DNA of 46,481 bases from an uncultured Candidatus Saccharibacteria bacterium (GCA_964474765.1 CAYYTW010000001.1:1-46481); one strand, 5' to 3'; positions 4,345 to 46,467 are shown, numbered from the stretch's first letter. Translations and numbers: made by a program. Notes: a model not told the origin generated them from the letters alone.

Positions 4345-5853
4345 ATGAATAACGTGTTTATGAAGAATAAATTCTATATCACTACTCCCATCTATTACGT
4401 CAACGATAAGCCGCACATCGGCCATGCCTATACGACCGTTTTGGCCGATGTTCTGGCGCGTTATCATCGCTTAATGGGCGAAGAGGTTTTTTTCTCGGTT
4501 GGGACCGATGAGCATGGAGCGAAGATTGAGGCGGCGGCGGAGCAAGCCAATAAAAGTCCGCGGGAGTTTTGCGATGAAAACGCCGAGGCGTTTAAAGAAG
4601 CGTGGCGAAGTCTGAACATTTCGTATGACAATTTTATCAGAACCACCAACCCGAAACACGAGAAAGCCGTCTCAAATGTCCTGGATTATTTATACAAGAA
4701 GGATTTCATCTACGAAGGAGTTTATAAGGGACTTTATTGCCGGGGATGCGAGCAGTATAAGACGGACGACGATTTGGTTGGCGGTCGGTGTCCGGACCAT
4801 CAGATTGAGCCGGAAGTTATGGAAGAGGACAGCTATTTTTTCCGGTTGTCTAAGTTCGGGGCGGAGTTGGGGCGAAGCATCGCGGACGATAAGTTTAAAG
4901 TCGAGCCAGCGGAAAGAAAAAACGAAGTTTTGAATTTCATCAGAAATGGACTACAGGATATTTCCATCTCGCGCAAAAAAGTTAAATGGGGGGTGCCCCT
5001 GCCTTTTTCCGCCGAAGGCGGATCCGCCTCTGGCGGAGACAAAAAATTCACGACCTATGTATGGATAGATGCCTTTTTGAACTATCTGACTGGTCTAGGA
5101 TGGGATGGGAAAAAAAATTCAAAATGGAACAAGTTCGGCGCAAACGCCAGCAAAATTCAAAATTCGAAATTAAGCTTTTGGCCCCCCGATGTTCAACTAA
5201 TGAGCAAGGATATTTTGCGGGTTCACGCGACAATCTGGCCGGCTTTGCTGTTGGCTCTCAAGATTCCTTTGCCAAAAAAATTATATATTCATGGATTTTT
5301 TACTATTGATAGTCAGAAGATGAGCAAGTCGGTGGGTAATGTCATCTGGCCAGAACAGTTGGTTGAAAAGTTCGGCGTTGATGGCGCGAGGTATCTTTTA
5401 ATGTCTTCGCTGGCGCATGGTCACGATGGCGATGTTTCGTGGGAAAAAATGGCGGAGAAATATAATACAAATTTAGCCAACGGCTTGGGTAATTTAGTCA
5501 GCCGGGTAATGAATTTAGCCAAGGGTTTTAACATCGCGGTTCGAGACGGGAGCCTGAAAATAAAAAGCGAGAAAGCAAGGAAGCTTCTCGATGAAATTAA
5601 ACTGAAAGAAGCGCTGGACGAAATCTGGAAAGAGGTTGATTGGGCCAATAAATATGTGGAGGAAACAAGGTTGTGGGAGTTGGTTAAGGCGAATAAAAAA
5701 GAGGCGAGAAAAGTTCTGGAAGAATTGCTGGCGGCAATCATCAGCGTGGCGGAGAGCCTGAAGCCGTTTATGCCGGCAACCGCGGAAAAGATTATTAAAA
5801 TTTTAGAGTCGGGCGAGATGAAAAAGGGAGAGATTTTGTTTCCGAGAATCTAA
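4345..5853 (+). CDS. metG: methionine--tRNA ligase (short form, no C-terminal tRNA-binding domain)
   Basis: Class I motifs HIGH (KPHIGHAYT) and KMSKS (QKMSKSVGN), plus a CxxC...CP knuckle. An alternative start at 4360 (MKNKFYITTPIYY) is plausible. Confidence 0.92.
   Translation: MNNVFMKNKFYITTPIYYVNDKPHIGHAYTTVLADVLARYHRLMGEEVFFSVGTDEHGAKIEAAAEQANKSPREFCDENAEAFKEAWRSLNISYDNFIRTTNPKHEKAVSNVLDYLYKKDFIYEGVYKGLYCRGCEQYKTDDDLVGGRCPDHQIEPEVMEEDSYFFRLSKFGAELGRSIADDKFKVEPAERKNEVLNFIRNGLQDISISRKKVKWGVPLPFSAEGGSASGGDKKFTTYVWIDAFLNYLTGLGWDGKKNSKWNKFGANASKIQNSKLSFWPPDVQLMSKDILRVHATIWPALLLALKIPLPKKLYIHGFFTIDSQKMSKSVGNVIWPEQLVEKFGVDGARYLLMSSLAHGHDGDVSWEKMAEKYNTNLANGLGNLVSRVMNLAKGFNIAVRDGSLKIKSEKARKLLDEIKLKEALDEIWKEVDWANKYVEETRLWELVKANKKEARKVLEELLAAIISVAESLKPFMPATAEKIIKILESGEMKKGEILFPRI
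5007..5038. repeat. GGATCC-centred double-hairpin repeat, in-frame in metG
   Basis: ttccgccgaaggcggatccgcctctggcggag encodes SAEGGSASGG. Near-identical copies lie at 30674-30705 (topA) and 33842-33874 (pth). Confidence 0.85.
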
Positions 5854-40043: not shown

Positions 40044-40268
40044 ATGAAATTTAGACAAACATTATTCTGGGACACAAACCCTAAGAATATAGACGTTAAA
40101 AGAAATGCTCAATATATCATTGAACGAATTTTGGAGTTTGGGGATATAAACGAAGTAAGTTGGATGTTAAGGCATTACCCGAAAAGCGTTATTAAAAAAG
40201 TAATGCACCTTCCACGAGTTCAATTAAACGATAAATCAAAAGCATTATGGTCCCTGTTGATCAAGTAA
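40044..40268 (+). CDS. small protein upstream of AbiEii toxin (putative cognate antitoxin-like partner)
   Basis: 74-aa ORF overlapping the next gene by 22 nt. The LFWDTNPKNIDVKRNAQYIIERILEFGD pattern resembles small partners and C-terminal parts of AbiEi-type proteins as I recall them. Confidence 0.5.
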   Translation: MKFRQTLFWDTNPKNIDVKRNAQYIIERILEFGDINEVSWMLRHYPKSVIKKVMHLPRVQLNDKSKALWSLLIK

Positions 40269-40927
40269 AACAAGGTTTTGACACTCTTTTTTTTGATGCT
40301 TTGCCGAAAGCTGTTGTTCTGGCGTTAAAAAAATGTTCAGAAATGGATTTTTTTTCACAAGGTAATTGGTATTTGGCCGGGGGCACCGCGCTCGCTTTGC
40401 AGTCAGGGCATCGCAGGTCTTACGACCTGGATTTTTTTACAAAAAATAAAATTTTTGACGAAAAAAAAGTTGAAAAAATTTTGAATGACGGAGGAGAATG
40501 GATTACTAATGCTATAAGCAAGGGAACAGTTTACGGCATATTTTCCGAAACAAAAATGAGTTTTATATCTTACCCATACTTCAAACCGGCCGAGAAAATG
40601 CGTAACTTTGGAACAGTTTCTTTGCTAACGCCCCCCGATATTGCGGTAATGAAAATTATCGCTATTTCTCAAAGAGGTAAAAAGCGAGACTTTTTTGATT
40701 TATATTGGATTTGTCGAAATGTAGAATCGTTGCGTAATAGTATCTTGAAGGTAGACAAACAATATTCTGTGCGTCAAAATCTTATCCATATTTTGAAAAG
40801 TTTGGTGTATTTCAAAGACGCGGAAAGCGACCCGGAGCCGGAAATATATTTTGACGCCAACTGGAAAAAAGTAAAAAGTTTTTTCACGAAAGAAATTCCA
40901 ATAATTGCGGAGAAAATAATCAAATGA
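40247..40927 (+). CDS. nucleotidyltransferase AbiEii/AbiGii toxin family protein
   Basis: GGTALALQSGHRRSYDLDFF matches the nucleotidyltransferase motif of AbiEii-like (DUF1814) type IV toxins. 226 aa. Confidence 0.78.
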   Translation: MVPVDQVKQGFDTLFFDALPKAVVLALKKCSEMDFFSQGNWYLAGGTALALQSGHRRSYDLDFFTKNKIFDEKKVEKILNDGGEWITNAISKGTVYGIFSETKMSFISYPYFKPAEKMRNFGTVSLLTPPDIAVMKIIAISQRGKKRDFFDLYWICRNVESLRNSILKVDKQYSVRQNLIHILKSLVYFKDAESDPEPEIYFDANWKKVKSFFTKEIPIIAEKIIK

Positions 40928-41132: not shown

Positions 41133-41522
41133 ATGGAACTCAATGAGAAAAATTTAAAATCTGTTTTAAGGCCTATTTTAACAGATCAGCGCGAGGAATG
41201 TCAGCGTTATCTGGGGGCCCTAAAGGAAGATTTTGATTCAAAACTCGAAATTATTGGCGAGCAATATTTTGATATTAAAAAAATCCTTGATTCTCACACA
41301 AAGATCCTTGATTCTCACACAAAGACCCTTGATTCTCACACAAAGACCCTTGAATCGCATACGGAAATGATAGTTTCTATTAAAGAAGACGCGGAAATCA
41401 TCAAACTTGACATCGAATTTATTAAAAATGAACTTAGAAAGAAAGTTGATTGGGATGAATTCGCCGCTTTAGAAAAACGAGTGGCGCTAATTGAATCAAG
41501 ACTTAAGGGCGCGATCGCTTAA
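41133..41522 (+). CDS. hypothetical coiled-coil protein with heptad tandem repeats
   Basis: 129 aa, helical and charged, with four consecutive (I/T)L(D/E)SHT(K/E) heptads. Confidence 0.6.
   Translation: MELNEKNLKSVLRPILTDQREECQRYLGALKEDFDSKLEIIGEQYFDIKKILDSHTKILDSHTKTLDSHTKTLESHTEMIVSIKEDAEIIKLDIEFIKNELRKKVDWDEFAALEKRVALIESRLKGAIA
41283..41366 (+). repeat. 4 x 21-bp tandem repeat within a CDS
   Basis: Units start at 41283, 41304, 41325 and 41346. The first two are identical (atccttgattctcacacaaag). Confidence 0.9.
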
Positions 41523-41825: not shown

Positions 41826-41967
41826 AGACTTAGGACTTACGCGCTTGTCATCCTGAATTTATTTCAGGATCTAAAAAGGCTTTATATGAGACAAACGGTT
41901 TTATTATGAGATTCCGAAACAAGTTCGGAATGACAAATTTGGAGTCAAACGCGTAAGTCCTAAGACT
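41826..41967. repeat. MITE-like palindromic element related to the 130-bp MITE core
   Basis: TIR cttaggacttacgcg (41829-41843) pairs with cgcgtaagtcctaag (41950-41964). The internal gtcatcctgaatttatttcaggatc ... gattccgaaacaagttcggaatgac core is shared with 32528 and 36840. Confidence 0.7.
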
Positions 41968-41984
41968 AATAACTAAAAAATAAG

Positions 41985-44009
41985 TTGATTAACAAACATA
42001 TGCGAAAAAATATTTACTCCGGCAAATCAAGAAGTTTTGATATTAGAACGAAAAGGTCGAGACATACGGGATTCCGTTTTCATTTTGGCAGTTTGTTTAA
42101 AGGCGGGCTGACAGTTTTGATTTCCGTCTTGATTATTTTCGCTCTTGTTCAAGCCGGCACCATCACGCCGCCAAGCGGATCGCCAAGCGCAAAATTTTAT
42201 ACTCTTTCGGAAATCTACACTCGGCTTACCACTAACGCCACTACCACTGAAGGGGGGCACTCTTTTGCTTTTAGCGATTCTCTGGCTGGCACGGGCCGCA
42301 CTTTAACCGAGATTTATGGCGCTATTCCGACCATTGACGCGACAAAAGTGCTTTCCGGCACAAGTTATCTTGGCATAGCCGGAAGTATGGCCAATAATGG
42401 CGCATTTGCTTTAACTGCCAGTTCGTCTGATCAATCAGTTACGGCTGGCTATTATAGCGGCGGCACTCTGGCTGGGGACGCGGATTTGGTGGCGGTAAAT
42501 ATTTCAAACGGTGTTAATATATTTGGCGTCATCGGCAATCTGATTGCGGGTTATCTTTACGGCGACAGCGACGCTTCAAAAGTATTGACTTCTGCGACAG
42601 GCAATGATGGAGCTAACTCTTATTTAGCTACAAACTTAAACAATAATACAGTTAAAAAAGGTATCAGTTATGGAGTAGGCCCAACCACCGGCGCTTATTC
42701 CGGCTATCCGGGCACTGGATGGTCTGGCACTGCCATAAATCAAGCCGCCTGCGACGCCCAAAACCCGACTTGGTACTGGTTTGAAGACGGCAACGGCGAT
42801 GGCGACACAACTGACCCAGAAGATGGTGTTTGCGTCCGAGCTTCTACTGTTACTTCTCTTTCTTGGAACGGTGCGGAGCAGATTGCCCCGACTCCGATCG
42901 CCGCCCAAGCCGCGACAGCTGGTACAGCAAATTCAATCACTAAAGCCAGCGCCGGCTGGACGGCTAATGCCTATACTGATGCTGTTGTTAAAATTACTTC
43001 GGGTACTGCATCGGGTTGCTGGGGTGTTGTTAAGTCAAACATCACCGACACCATTACTGTCTACGGCTCATGGCTTACTTCCAGCCCTGCTACAAGCAGC
43101 TACGCCTCAAATTGTGGCACGCCTGACGAAACTTCGGTTTTCTCTGTTGAAGATGACGGTTTCGCTATTTACGACAATTCTTGGATCGGCGATTGGACTT
43201 GTGACGGAACGGCTTTTCCAAACGGCGCGCCTTCTTGGGTTTCCTATCCGACTTCGGCCAAGGCCGGTTCCGGCAATATCGCGTTGGCCATAGCAGATTG
43301 CTATGATGGTACAAGAGATTTGCTTCCCACCGAAGCGAGCCGCGCGGTTAAAACTGGCACAGCCACTGCAACTTCAACTACATCCATCACCGACTCTTCT
43401 CTTTCTTTAAATACCAACGCATGGGTTGGGCAAAAAGTGCTTATTACCGGCGGCACTGGTTCGGGCGGTTATGGCCGAATTGAGAGCAATACGGGAACAG
43501 TAATTACGGTGGATAGCTGGACAGGCGGGGATCCAGATGTCGGATCCACATTTGCTATCATCTATCTTATTCCGCACGCAGCTTATAACCCAGCAACAGA
43601 TATTCTTAGCCTTAACGCAGTTGGAAGTGCTGTAACAGCTGATAATGACCCTCTAAACGGCAACCTCGGGCCACTGACACAAGAAGTTTTAAAAAATTGG
43701 AAGGGCACAAAGTTGCCTACAGCCAGTGATTTTTTCGGTTTTTGCGGCACCGAGGGAGACGGCACCCCCAGTTTAGCTTATCGCACTTCCGGCAACGCTT
43801 ATACCACTGACAAAACTTACGGCGATTATGGCGGACAAGTAGGAAGATCAGACGAATTTTTGGATTTAGCTAACAGCGGAAACTGGGAATGGCTTTCAGA
43901 GCAGCACCACTACTACAGTGCGCGGATAGCCGGCAATTACGCCTGCTCGTACTTCCATGGTAGTAGTGTCTACGGTGGCTACAGATTCCGTGCCGTCTTC
44001 CGCCCGTAG
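41985..44009 (+). CDS. DGR target (variable) protein: N-terminal membrane anchor, Thr/Gly/Ser-rich ectodomain, C-terminal C-type-lectin/FGE-like VR domain
   Basis: TM helix GLTVLISVLIIFALVQAG. The C-terminus GNWEWLSEQ...YRFRAVFRP matches the WEW...(G/Y)FR pattern of CLec-fold DGR variable regions. The last 118 nt match the TR. An alternative ATG start lies at 41999. Confidence 0.85.
   Translation: MINKHMRKNIYSGKSRSFDIRTKRSRHTGFRFHFGSLFKGGLTVLISVLIIFALVQAGTITPPSGSPSAKFYTLSEIYTRLTTNATTTEGGHSFAFSDSLAGTGRTLTEIYGAIPTIDATKVLSGTSYLGIAGSMANNGAFALTASSSDQSVTAGYYSGGTLAGDADLVAVNISNGVNIFGVIGNLIAGYLYGDSDASKVLTSATGNDGANSYLATNLNNNTVKKGISYGVGPTTGAYSGYPGTGWSGTAINQAACDAQNPTWYWFEDGNGDGDTTDPEDGVCVRASTVTSLSWNGAEQIAPTPIAAQAATAGTANSITKASAGWTANAYTDAVVKITSGTASGCWGVVKSNITDTITVYGSWLTSSPATSSYASNCGTPDETSVFSVEDDGFAIYDNSWIGDWTCDGTAFPNGAPSWVSYPTSAKAGSGNIALAIADCYDGTRDLLPTEASRAVKTGTATATSTTSITDSSLSLNTNAWVGQKVLITGGTGSGGYGRIESNTGTVITVDSWTGGDPDVGSTFAIIYLIPHAAYNPATDILSLNAVGSAVTADNDPLNGNLGPLTQEVLKNWKGTKLPTASDFFGFCGTEGDGTPSLAYRTSGNAYTTDKTYGDYGGQVGRSDEFLDLANSGNWEWLSEQHHYYSARIAGNYACSYFHGSSVYGGYRFRAVFRP
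43888..44005 (+). repeat. DGR variable repeat (VR)
   Basis: 118 nt aligned without gaps to 45030-45147. There are 15 mismatches, all where the TR has adenine. Confidence 0.9.
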
Positions 44010-44082
44010 TGATTTCCCATCTTGATAATTTGGTAATTTGATGATTTCGCTGATTTTGAAAAAAAGATTACACTGATAATAT

Positions 44083-44460
44083 ATGGCTTATTTATATCAG
44101 GATTTAACTTACAAACTGCGAGGAATATTTTTTGAGGTATATAACAAATTAGGACCGGGGTTGCCAGAGAAAGTTTATCAGAAATCTGTGATTTATGAAC
44201 TGCAAAAAGATAATATTTCCTACGAGACCGAAAAGAACATTAATATCAAATATAAGGATATAAATGTCGGAAAACAAAGGTTGGATTTGGTTGTTGATGG
44301 GAAAATAATCATTGAGGTTAAAGCCACTGATAATATGCATTCGCTTTTTGAAAAACAAACCATTGCTTATCTTAAAGCGTCAGATTACAAGCTGGCTTTA
44401 TTGGTGAATTTTGGCGGGAGTAAACTGGTTATAAAACGATATATTAATATGGATCAGTGA
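44083..44460 (+). CDS. GxxExxY protein (PD-(D/E)XK nuclease-fold family)
   Basis: GLPEKVY is GxxExxY. LDLVVDGKIIIEVKA is a D...ExK-like motif. 125 aa. Confidence 0.82.
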   Translation: MAYLYQDLTYKLRGIFFEVYNKLGPGLPEKVYQKSVIYELQKDNISYETEKNINIKYKDINVGKQRLDLVVDGKIIIEVKATDNMHSLFEKQTIAYLKASDYKLALLVNFGGSKLVIKRYINMDQ

Positions 44461-44496
44461 TATCAGTTTTTATTTATCAGTGTTATCGGTTTTTCT

Positions 44497-44853
44497 ATGT
44501 CTCGCTACGAACACATAAGAATATTTCAATGCGCCTATATGTTGACCATTGAAATATACAAAACGACAGCCAATTTCAACCGGGAATTCAAATACACTCT
44601 TGGAGAAAAGTTAAAAAACGCGGCACACGAAATTCTGGACGCGATAATGAGAACAAACTCAATGCCAGACAGAGAGAAACAAAAATGCTTTCCAGAAATT
44701 GATTTTAAGAAAGAGAATTTGCGCGTGTATTTAAGAATCGCCGCTGATTTAAAATTAATCAGCCCTGGCCGGCTTGGAGTTCTCAATGAAAGAATTGAAG
44801 AGCTTGGCCGACAACTGGGCGGTTGGCAAAAATGGACGGCTAAAAGCAGGTAG
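44497..44853 (+). CDS. avd: four-helix-bundle protein, Avd-like DGR accessory factor
   Basis: 118-aa helical basic protein with a C-terminal ELGRQLGGWQKW resembling the Avd/23S-IVS protein family. It sits between the target gene and the TR, as in canonical DGRs. Confidence 0.75.
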   Translation: MSRYEHIRIFQCAYMLTIEIYKTTANFNREFKYTLGEKLKNAAHEILDAIMRTNSMPDREKQKCFPEIDFKKENLRVYLRIAADLKLISPGRLGVLNERIEELGRQLGGWQKWTAKSR

Positions 44854-45029
44854 TATTTTTGGCCGCCTATTCTTGCCAGAGTTTCCGCTTGCCATGGGCG
44901 GCGGGAAGCGCGCAAGAGAAATGATGGGAATCACAGTCCCGTTCCCTAGGAAAATTTTCTAGGATATTTGACAAAGGCCATACCGAGCTTCGGCAAGGAT
45001 TGGCCGGGAATAATGAATAGTAACGGGAC

Positions 45030-45147
45030 AATGGCTTTCAGAGCAGCACAACAACAACAATGCGCGGATAGCCGGCAATAACGCCTGCTCGAACTTCAAT
45101 AATAATAATGTCAACAATGGCAACAGATTCCGTGCCGTCTTCCGCCC
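45030..45147 (+). repeat. DGR template repeat (TR)
   Basis: Non-coding copy of the VR, rich in AAC/AAT (14 AAY triplets in the VR frame), 103/118 identical to the VR. Confidence 0.9.
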
Positions 45148-45161
45148 TAATGATTCCCGAA

Positions 45162-45200
45162 CTTGAGCCCTTAGCTCTTTATTGGGGCTAAGGGCTCAAG
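45162..45200. other. 14-bp perfect-stem hairpin between the TR 3-prime end and the RT stop codon
   Basis: cttgagcccttagc (45162-45175) pairs with gctaagggctcaag (45187-45200), with an 11-nt loop. No flanking T-run on either strand. Confidence 0.8.
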
Positions 45201-45201
45201 C

Positions 45202-46467
45202 TTAATGAGGCTCTTTCCAAATAAAATAATCGTAATTTCGATTGACCGGCTCAAGATAAATTTTCAGAATCCCGAAGTGCTTTTCATAAAGCGTTTTTCG
45301 CAGATTGTAGCAGTTGGCGTGCTTGAAAAATCCATAAACGGAATTGATTGATGAAAAAATGTGGCGGAAATCATCTGTAAATTTCCTGTTGTCAAAAACT
45401 ATAAATGGATCATTGAAAATTATGTCGCAAGCGCGAGATGTGTCGTTTGGATCAAGCGCTTTCAGAACTTTTTGATTGAAATGCCATAAATTGCTTTTAA
45501 GCTTTTTGACGGTTCGCCGTCTGATAAGCGTATAATCCGGCTTGACTATATATCCGCAAAAATTAATGCCGTTTGTTGCCGGCTGGAGAATCTGCTTTTT
45601 GGGGTGAAGTTTAAGTCGCAGATCGGTTTCCACGAAAGTTTTGATGTCATCGCGCCACTTAAGCAGTTGTCCTTTTGAAGAATTAAGCAACAACAGATCA
45701 TCCATATAGCGGAAATAATATCGGCATTTTAGCGAGTGTTTGATGAATTGATCGAGTTCGTTCAGATAGACATTGGCGAAAAATTGGCTGGTCAAATTGC
45801 CGATGGGCAAGCCGCAATTAACTTTGCCAAAAAGAGATTTATGCGGCGGCACGGATTGTAAAAGTTTCAGGTCGCCTCTCGGGATGTAATTCGTGGTCGG
45901 ATCGTGAGAAATAATTTTTTCGGCCAGCCATAAGATTTCCGGGTTCTTGGCACGCTTTTTAATAAAAGAAAATAGAACGCCCTTGTCTATACTGACGAAA
46001 AAACTTTGAATGTCGGCTTGGAGAAAAAACAAATCCGGGGCGATAATTTTTTTGAGGTAATGGATAGCTTTATGGGCTCCTTTAGTTTGGCGGCAGGCGT
46101 AAGAGTGGAAAACAAACATTTTTTCCCAGACGGGTTCAAGATAGCTAACAAGCAAATGGTGGACAACGCGATCCCGAAAATCAGCGGCCCAGACCTCGCG
46201 CAGTTTCGGGTCAGTGATGGCAAAACAAATTGAGGGGCCGAGCTGGTAATTATGACTTTTTAATTCTTCTTTCAGTTTCAAAAGTTCCGATTCAAAATTC
46301 ATTTCAAATTTGGCCACGTGATAAGTTTTGCGTTTATGTTTTCGGCAATCAAGGTAGGCCTTATAAAGATTTTTGAAATTAAAGAGGTCCGTTCCAAGTT
46401 TTTTGACATTTTTTTCACAGGGTTGCGGTGCATAATGCCAGATACATTCTGGACTCCTTGAGACCAT
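45202..46467 (-). CDS. DGR-type reverse transcriptase
   Basis: RT motifs include PIGNLTSQFFANVYL (the I/LGxxxSQ motif characteristic of DGR RTs) and YFRYMDDLLLL (YMDD catalytic box). The N-terminus LYKAYLDCRKHKRKT...FRDRVVHH is typical. No maturase or endonuclease domains. Confidence 0.92.
   Translation of the reverse strand: MVSRSPECIWHYAPQPCEKNVKKLGTDLFNFKNLYKAYLDCRKHKRKTYHVAKFEMNFESELLKLKEELKSHNYQLGPSICFAITDPKLREVWAADFRDRVVHHLLVSYLEPVWEKMFVFHSYACRQTKGAHKAIHYLKKIIAPDLFFLQADIQSFFVSIDKGVLFSFIKKRAKNPEILWLAEKIISHDPTTNYIPRGDLKLLQSVPPHKSLFGKVNCGLPIGNLTSQFFANVYLNELDQFIKHSLKCRYYFRYMDDLLLLNSSKGQLLKWRDDIKTFVETDLRLKLHPKKQILQPATNGINFCGYIVKPDYTLIRRRTVKKLKSNLWHFNQKVLKALDPNDTSRACDIIFNDPFIVFDNRKFTDDFRHIFSSINSVYGFFKHANCYNLRKTLYEKHFGILKIYLEPVNRNYDYFIWKEPH

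Follow-up and report, generated by a model that had tools for sequence, protein, structure and literature searches.

A probable diversity-generating retroelement in a candidate-phyla bacterium carries a covarying RNA domain upstream of its template repeat that may be a permuted counterpart of the Bordetella phage RNA

The 46,481-nucleotide (nt) stretch of DNA analysed here, called the window throughout, comes from an uncultured Candidatus Saccharibacteria bacterium (GCA_964474765.1 CAYYTW010000001.1:1-46481), and its positions 41,985 to 46,467 very probably hold a genuine, complete, intact and chromosomally encoded diversity-generating retroelement (DGR) of the type known in the Candidate Phyla Radiation (CPR). 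The DGR class is well known and a DGR in a CPR genome is expected biology; the added value of this locus is mechanistic. The 176-nt spacer between the accessory gene avd and the template repeat (TR) is conserved, structured and covarying; two helices, defined by covariation in more than 13 lineages, flank the template and would place a primer strand, a 2-nt linker and a stop strand on its upstream side. The components of the element, including its reverse transcriptase (RT), its variable repeat (VR) and sequences resembling the initiation of mutagenic homing (IMH) site and its TR-side counterpart, IMH*, are as follows.

42000-44009, plus strand: target gene, 669 aa from the ATG at 42000; the open reading frame (ORF) is open from a TTG at 41985 (674 aa)
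43888-44005, plus strand: VR, defined by alignment with the TR; last 40 codons of the target
44006-44018, plus strand: IMH-like flank of the VR, consisting of G, the stop codon TAG and then TGATTTCCC
44497-44853, plus strand: avd, 118 aa, four-helix-bundle accessory protein; PF22296 bAvd, 64.6 bits (cutoff 40)
45030-45147, plus strand: TR, with 38 adenines and 14 in-frame AAY codons
45202-46467, minus strand: DGR reverse transcriptase, 421 aa; RVT_1; convergent with target, avd and TR

Comparison of the TR (45030-45147) with the VR (43888-44005), by MAFFT and without gaps, gave 118 columns, 0 gaps and 15 mismatches, reproducing the alignment proposed in an earlier, sequence-only reading of this DNA. 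The TR has an adenine at all 15 mismatched positions (A>G at 7, A>T at 6 and A>C at 2) and no mismatch falls on another nucleotide, as that reading had also claimed; with 38 A in the 118 nt of the TR, the hypergeometric chance of 15 of 15 falling on A is 4.3e-9. In the frame of the ORF at 41985-44009 the TR reads QWLSEQHNNNNARIAGNNACSNFNNNNVNNGNRFRAVFRP, and 13 of its 14 AAY (Asn) codons are changed in the VR, the same count as first reported, the sole unchanged codon being AAT at 43935. The identical 3' end of the two repeats is GC-rich and measures 25 nt (45123-45147) rather than the 27 nt originally given. The VR forms the last 40 codons of the target, which stops with TAG at 44007-44009; its placement in about the last 40 codons of a 674-aa ORF was correct as to the codons and wrong as to the start, since NCBI annotates the protein from the ATG at 42000 (669 aa) and not from the TTG at 41985. 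The ORF is intact and not a pseudogene, and no second VR-like copy was found on either strand of the window. Past the 25-nt identical end the VR continues with GTAGTGATTTCCC and the TR with TAATGATTCCC, apparently an IMH/IMH*-like pair: the VR flank TGATTTCCC is a near-copy, with one extra T, of the TR flank TGATTCCC, which contains the 3' strand of helix P1 described below, and in each lineage the VR flank follows its own TR flank, so that the pair co-varies across lineages.

When the RT was searched against all Protein Data Bank (PDB) sequences, the best match was bRT of the Bordetella phage (8ub7; 148 bits, E=4.6e-42), compared with about 5e-13 for the best group II intron RT, and the protein scored below the curated cutoffs of the alternatives (TIGR04416 group II intron, 111 bits with a cutoff of 300; retron St85, 53.5 bits with a cutoff of 235). 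Its IGNLTSQ motif aligns with IGSLTSQ of bRT, the YMDD is aligned too, and K45, F82, R90, D152, D256 and D257, which are invariant in 20 clade members, align with K29, F66, R74, D138 and D215/D216 of bRT, described as contacts for template, dNTP and catalysis (Handa et al. 2024, bioRxiv 10.1101/2023.10.23.563531). Similarity search thus points to a DGR-type RT with an (I/L)GxxxSQ motif, as proposed earlier, with bRT as its closest solved relative. Compared with bRT, the protein carries a C-terminal extension of about 90 aa (window 45202-45480, residues ~330-421) that has no family match and includes the clade-invariant residues N375, S376, G379, L389, F398 and L401. The RT is encoded on the minus strand, an orientation missing from the first reading, and because it is convergent with the TR the two cannot be co-transcribed as in the prototype. 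Besides its PF22296 match, Avd scored 67.8 bits against the NCBIfam equivalog NF033474, below the cutoff of 80, and avd is kept next to RT homologues in related loci. All gene identities in the sequence-only reading (GxxExxY/PDDEXK_3 at 44083-44460, bAvd at 44497-44853 and an RVT_1 RT with IGNLTSQ) were right, and its claim of a complete DGR is supported by the presence of every sequence-testable defining feature: an A-specific TR/VR pair in an intact target ORF, a bRT-like RT with the (I/L)GxxxSQ motif and an Avd homologue.

The target begins with a basic stretch and a transmembrane helix (GLTVLISVLIIFALV), continues with a beta-rich middle and ends in the VR domain, and is predicted from this arrangement to be a membrane-anchored surface protein with the VR at its C-terminal end. 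It has about 170 homologues, many of them encoded on contigs that also carry RT homologues. In 56 homologous targets the last 40 residues are conserved except at the 14 TR-Asn-templated positions; mean entropy reached 2.62 bits at the 14 TR-Asn codons, compared with 0.53 bits for the rest of the VR codons (p=1.3e-7 by Mann-Whitney test, n=56 targets), and the residues found at the variable positions of these targets are those reachable from AAY. Searches for a recognizable fold gave little: the VR domain had no Pfam match even at E<=10, Foldseek against the PDB gave no match at E<=0.001, the target-family profile matched no PDB sequence, hhalign of the VR domain against Lcl_C returned a probability of 0.4, and a homology search with the C-terminal domain alone recovered only 10 fragments. 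AlphaFold2 modelled the full target with a pLDDT of 62.5, with residues 535-674 below 50. The sole basis for calling the domain 'CLec-type' (C-type lectin) is motif resemblance (KLPTxxDF, which is WRLPT-like, and WEW...YRFR). The annotation of distant matches as PF07603 (Lcl_C) was considered as support for a CLec fold and rejected, as those proteins match the N-terminal module of the target and not the VR domain. That module (41985-42600, residues ~60-210) also occurs, at no more than 71% identity, in proteins P0212-P0240, whose C-terminus is Lcl_C/DUF1566; by sequence, it is one surface-anchoring module combined with different variable heads.

The remaining genes of the window encode LeuRS, topoisomerase I, RelA/SpoT, FtsA and HisRS, and the DGR is chromosomal for that reason. 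The nearest relative of the RT among species-representative genomes is found in a metagenome-assembled genome of Candidatus Doudnabacteria (88% identity; locus L001, MFEF01000018), which makes the attribution to the CPR, and the earlier suggestion of a CPR-like genome, reasonable. In an organism that, like other CPR bacteria, may live host-attached, the DGR singles out the putative membrane-anchored surface protein as the hypervariable interface.

The elements of the RNA domain, together with a hairpin on the other side of the TR, are listed below.

44875-44913, plus strand: stem-loop P0, with invariant internal-loop nucleotides CAGAGU / AGCGCGC
44926-44943, plus strand: P1 5' strand GGGAAUCA (44926-44933), linker CA, P2 5' strand GUCCCGUU (44936-44943); proposed primer and stop strands
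44945-45005, plus strand: hairpin H3 (44945-44963), an A-rich single strand and the interrupted stem-loop H4 with a UUCG tetraloop (44976-45005)
45022-45029, plus strand: P2 3' strand AACGGGAC, directly abutting the first TR nucleotide
45151-45158, plus strand: P1 3' strand UGAUUCCC, separated by 3 nt from where TR/VR identity ends; IMH*-like
45162-45200, no strand assigned: hairpin with a 17-bp stem and a 5-nt loop, between TR and RT, 1 nt from the RT stop codon

In helix P1, GGGAAUCA pairs with UGAUUCCC across the TR; the upstream strands of P1 and P2 are 2 nt apart (CA), and the edges of the two helices coincide with the limits of TR/VR homology to within 0-3 nt. RNAalifold, run on 15 sequences, independently predicted P0, P2, H3 and H4, with compensatory changes in 31 of 35 pairs; in H3 and H4 such changes occur at every pair. 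Pair counting showed 91.2% of cells paired vs 70.3% in shuffles, and covariation was 0.672 vs 0.274 in shuffles (0 of 500 shuffles as high); when, as a control, the structures were slid by 1-3 columns, only 38-49% of cells were paired. Because the MAFFT alignment mis-registers the 3' strand of P1 in several lineages, P1 was tested without alignment in 13 lineages by comparing the pairing of each upstream 8-mer with the 22 nt after its own TR and with the 22 nt after the TRs of other lineages. Own pairing was 7.77 of 8 positions vs 6.49 for cross pairing, and 0 of 20,000 permutations were as good (p<=5e-5); for P2, across the same 13 lineages and 12 distinct helix sequences, the values were 7.62 of 8 vs 6.35 (p<=5e-5). 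No Rfam family matched the upstream RNA, either at the gathering threshold or at E<=1, no description of the domain was found in the DGR literature that could be examined, and a scan with consensus promoters and terminators returned nothing useful around the TR. The hairpin at 45162-45200 is conserved in position and not in sequence, has no U-tract and was not terminator-like in the consensus scan. It may be a terminator for the convergent transcripts or an analogue of the Avd-binding stem-loop; a dispensable role is favoured because the related locus L093 lacks it.

We examined 160 loci encoding RT relatives with our own detector for A-biased repeat pairs, and found an A-biased TR/VR pair in 98 of them. 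In all 7 loci with a detectable pair and an RT identity of at least 57%, the TR is on the strand opposite to the RT, and TR, avd and VR/target lie opposite the RT strand and downstream of the RT stop codon, as in the window. Since all 7 loci share this convergent layout, it is a lineage trait and not an assembly accident; with L001 and L083 being one and the same, they represent six different contigs. Among more distant RTs the TR is mostly on the same strand, upstream or downstream of the RT, and TR and RT on different strands have been reported before (Wu et al. 2018, PMC5758913; myDGR paper).

A generic scan for 7+7-nt pairing around every TR had little power (its best upstream matches cluster at ~100-130 nt, which is suggestive only), and a covariance-model search was adopted for that reason. 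The model of the upstream domain matched loci outside its training set, every match lying on the strand of the TR and stopping where the TR begins. Five of these have the order RT-RNA-TR-avd on one strand (L007, L004, L097, L011 and L006; E ~1e-9 to 1e-15) and six have the canonical order avd-RNA-TR-RT (L031, L029, L017, L026, L059 and L048; E ~1e-3 to 1e-7). P1 holds in the matched loci with new sequences, such as TCCATTG/CAATGGA, AATCTATT/AATAGATT and AAACACT/AGTGTTT. In the canonical-order relatives the TR ends 4-20 nt before the RT match, leaving no TR-RT spacer. To judge from these matches, the RNA domain and the TR behave as one module, with the RT gene free to move among three gene orders. 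One of the canonical-order loci, L026 on a Paceibacterota contig, contains two TR/VR pairs (1432-1739 and 4583-4893), each with its own upstream RNA domain and a nearby avd-like gene.

Natural insertions in L084 are confined to loops and linkers and spare P0, P1, P2, H3 and H4; about 0.3 kb of inserted sequence lies downstream of the 3' strand of P1, and the A-specific VR is kept. In L093, about 1.2 kb is inserted directly after the 3' strand of P1, alongside an A-specific VR. As separate observations, small ORFs that look GIY-YIG-like by eye lie in DGR RNA loops or linkers, or between TR and RT, at L084:3087-4118 and L093:1031-2567 (minus strand); those of L084 are bracketed by the inverted repeats CCCCCAC...GTGGGGG and CCCCCGTGAGATAA...TTATCTCATGGGG, and the 1.2-kb array of L093, which likewise spares helices P0, P1, P2, H3 and H4, consists of GTCTTTGCGAG-type repeats.

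To our knowledge, Bordetella phage BPP-1 is the only system whose DGR RNA has been dissected, and the sole solved RT-Avd-RNA structure (PDB 8ub7 series) comes from it as well. In that RNA the primer strand, at positions 47-56 of the spacer (Sp), pairs with TR117-129; after 2 nt, Sp59-70 pairs with a segment of avd just upstream of the TR, and cDNA synthesis stops before this duplex; a short stem-loop then leads through unpaired adenosines and a single-stranded 'thumb ring' to the bRT-binding stem-loop, which is long and interrupted (Handa et al. 2024, 10.1101/2023.10.23.563531). By analogy, the DGR RNA of the clade examined here, which takes in CPR members as well as relatives whose gene order is canonical or otherwise, could be a circular permutation of the Bordetella phage RNA, with a conserved domain for priming, stop and protein binding (about 160 nt) upstream of the TR and only an 8-nt primer-binding site after it. 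We advance this tentatively and rate its chance as somewhat short of even. In the mechanism proposed for this locus, a plus-strand transcript would extend from avd, or from a point just past it, across the TR and would fold so that the TR is looped out between P1 and P2. P1 (44926-44933 with 45151-45158) has the polarity of a primer annealed to its template, the upstream strand's 3' end pointing into the TR, and P2 (44936-44943 with 45022-45029) would be a roadblock that halts cDNA synthesis where TR/VR homology has its 5' limit. The RT-Avd complex would be supplied in trans from the convergent gene; cis-priming would occur at or next to A44933, the TR would be copied with misincorporation opposite adenines, and synthesis would stop at P2. 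With the GC-rich 25 nt common to both repeats and the IMH-like flank as guides, this cDNA would take the place of the VR, and up to 14 Asn-templated codons in the C-terminal domain of the surface protein would be re-randomised.

The assignment of primer and stop roles to P1 and P2 is supported by four observations: the borders of the helices fall at the limits of TR/VR homology, a near-copy of the P1 3' strand, specific to the lineage, is retained in the VR flank, the L084 insertions fall only in loops and linkers, and L093 tolerates 1.2 kb directly after the P1 3' strand. Several points weigh against it, or against the wider picture of an active element with a defined variable domain. P1 is read as primer duplex and P2 as stop only by analogy. 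At the end of the P1 5' strand, the final paired nucleotide is A in 8 of the 13 lineages, C in 2 and U in 3, and no conserved priming adenosine is evident, given this variation. The covariance-model alignments of the additional loci are fitted to the structure of the model, and the generic 7+7 scan was weak, with true cases at 14 and shuffles reaching 13. Elements like those downstream of the TR in BPP-1 were reported in 207 of 278 DGRs, CPR included, in a survey that examined only 40 nt upstream of TRs (Handa et al. 2024, 10.1101/2023.10.23.563531). Models of the VR-domain fold are of low confidence (pLDDT <50 in the full-length protein and 41.5 for the domain alone, the C-terminal 140 aa), and in a cluster look-up the sole other record of the target protein, present on two contigs, has the same VR sequence and a different start codon.

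Alternatively, P1 and P2 could be only a structural clamp or a processing signal, with priming, as in the Bordetella phage, from a downstream spacer; here the hairpin at 45162-45200 and RNA antisense to the RT gene's 3' end would form that spacer. A strong stem-loop does follow the TR region directly, where BPP-1 has its Avd-binding stem-loop; 207 of 278 DGRs in the published survey have stem-loops of this kind just after the TR; and the putative priming nucleotide differs between lineages. We nevertheless consider downstream priming unlikely, for all of the conserved, covarying structure lies upstream of the TR, and the sequence past the 3' strand of P1 is unconserved between lineages except as RT coding sequence and accommodates the ~1.2-kb and ~0.3-kb insertions of L093 and L084, whose VRs remain A-specific. 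The canonical-order relatives argue the same way, their TRs lying 4-20 nt before the RT match with no room for a spacer, and in them, too, the covariance model finds the upstream domain.

Two further explanations concern the repeats and the state of the element. That TR and VR are an ordinary segmental duplication diverged through random mutation can hardly be credited; nothing speaks for it except the repeat itself, it is refuted by the confinement of 15 of 15 differences to the adenines of one copy (P=4.3e-9), RT and Avd genes adjoin the repeats, and the same A-biased pattern recurs at 98 related loci. The element could also be a recently inactivated relic whose A-specific differences record past activity, which would fit the identical VR in the only other record of the target protein and a cassette, between target and avd, that could disturb transcription. 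Yet all ORFs are intact, the catalytic and motif residues of the RT are conserved, there are 0 non-A mismatches in 118 nt, all RNA helices are intact and the cassette lies outside the RNA domain; recent inactivation is accordingly improbable in our estimation.

The cassette just mentioned, and a repeat motif that precedes it, occupy the interval between the VR and avd.

44027-44050, plus strand: AT-rich 8-nt tandem motif (TTGRTAAT x3), 3' of the VR; identified by eye
44058-44495, plus strand: inserted cassette of 438 bp with 22-nt inverted terminal repeats (44058-44079 and 44474-44495), ends GAAAAAAAGATTACACTGATAA
44083-44460, plus strand: GxxExxY PD-(D/E)XK gene, 125 aa; TIGR04256 and PF13366

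The protein encoded there matches both families over its full length (TIGR04256, 126.5 bits with a cutoff of 35; PF13366 PDDEXK_3, 120.7 bits with a cutoff of 22). The sequence-only reading counted the gene as part of the DGR, and a functional accessory role, for example as a nuclease acting at the VR, would agree with its position between VR and avd on the same strand and with a 72%-identical homologue, flanked by ATTACACTGAT repeats, that stands 3' of the VR in L004, which has a different DGR gene order, and before the RT in L010. Several observations stand against such a role. The closest relatives lack the gene: in L001 (88% RT identity), which is collinear on both sides, BLAST showed window positions 44048-44493 replaced by 32 nt. 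A GxxExxY homologue is present in only 2 of the 160 related loci (72% amino acid identity, both flanked by ATTACACTGAT repeats), where the homologous cassettes lie directly 3' of the VR (L004, 1320-1685) and just upstream of the RT (L010, 6550-6915). The 22-nt inverted repeats bracket the gene and occur nowhere else in the window, their core ATWACACTGATAA having two sites, the cassette ends, where 0.08 are expected; the GC content of the gene is 32.5% vs 40-49% in the DGR genes; and other relatives have unrelated small nuclease-like ORFs (GIY-YIG-like by eye) in similar hairpin-flanked insertions. Because it is missing in the sibling, has inverted repeats at its ends, is low in GC and is found in 2 of 160 loci, we read the GxxExxY gene, from these sequence features, as a small mobile cassette, an independent insertion and not a DGR accessory gene, and give the accessory role only a slight chance. 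The unit resembles a tiny mobile cassette that lands repeatedly beside DGR variable repeats. Intervening sequences of 23S rRNA are a known setting for both the GxxExxY family and Avd-like four-helix-bundle proteins.

The three units of the AT-rich motif at 44027-44050 are TTGATAAT, TTGGTAAT and TTGATGAT, and ATTTGRTWATTTG repeats are likewise seen by eye 3' of the VR in nine related loci (L001, L088, L090, L002, L005, L009, L100, L004 and L010). This repeat may be a signal of the recipient site. Upstream of the DGR, a DUF6922 gene (40044-40268) overlaps a gene for an AbiEii nucleotidyltransferase toxin (40247-40927), a type IV toxin-antitoxin-like pair ~1 kb from the element. Just upstream of the DGR, an ORF at 41133-41522 encodes a coiled-coil-like protein of 129 aa without a Pfam match and includes four tandem 21-nt repeats (41279-41383) that translate into KILDSHT heptads. 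The 460-nt intergenic region before the target start contains a 22-nt inverted repeat (41826-41847 and 41946-41967; 91% complementary, 98 nt apart).

If the permuted arrangement is correct, the RNA domain and the TR would form a self-contained module belonging to an RNA family absent from Rfam, which would explain why the position of the RT gene can be downstream, upstream or on the opposite strand. Confirmation would allow the functional RNA of many uncultivated DGRs to be located by a rule based on sequence and would explain the architectural plasticity of DGR cassettes. For reconstitution or engineering, a minimal RNA (about 44869-45200) is defined.

With the BPP-1 DGR (mtd-avd-TR-Sp-brt) the element shares A-specific transfer from TR to VR, an Avd partner, an RT with the IGxxxSQ motif, YMDD and fingertip residues, and a VR placed 3' in the target, whose invariant end is GC-rich and whose IMH/IMH*-like flank is non-identical. 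The RNA elements, too, follow in the same order (P1 5' strand, 2 nt, P2 5' strand, H3, A-rich single strand, interrupted H4), but the putative primer and stop strands and the stem-loops lie upstream of the TR here and downstream of it in BPP-1. The RT is on the opposite strand and convergent, with no TR-RT spacer and only 54 nt from the TR to the RT stop codon, and the downstream spacer elements co-transcribed with the RT that mark a BPP-1-type RNA are not found here. The two systems also differ in the RT, which is ~90 aa longer at its C-terminus here, in the sequence after the VR, a GC-rich inverted repeat (cruciform) in BPP-1 and an AT-rich 8-nt repeat here, and in setting, the present element being chromosomal in a cellular host, not in a phage, with a target unrelated in sequence to Mtd.

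With the DGRs of the 'CPR set' (Wu et al. 2018, PMC5758913) the element has in common a CPR host, an Avd-containing cassette and a target without recognisable domains, although its target-avd-TR-(RT) layout cannot be mapped onto their architecture B3, 'TR-(avd)-RT'. The GxxExxY protein is matched over its full length by TIGR04256/PF13366 proteins, with the difference that its gene lies inside a 438-bp unit with 22-nt terminal inverted repeats. Retrons prime the synthesis of msDNA in cis, using a 2'-OH inside the template RNA and adjacent to a duplex, and have been likened to DGRs in this respect (Handa et al. 2024, 10.1101/2023.10.23.563531). The present system differs from them in the clade of its RT (St85, 53.5 bits against a cutoff of 235), in having no msr/msd pair and in its product, which would replace a segment of a chromosomal gene.

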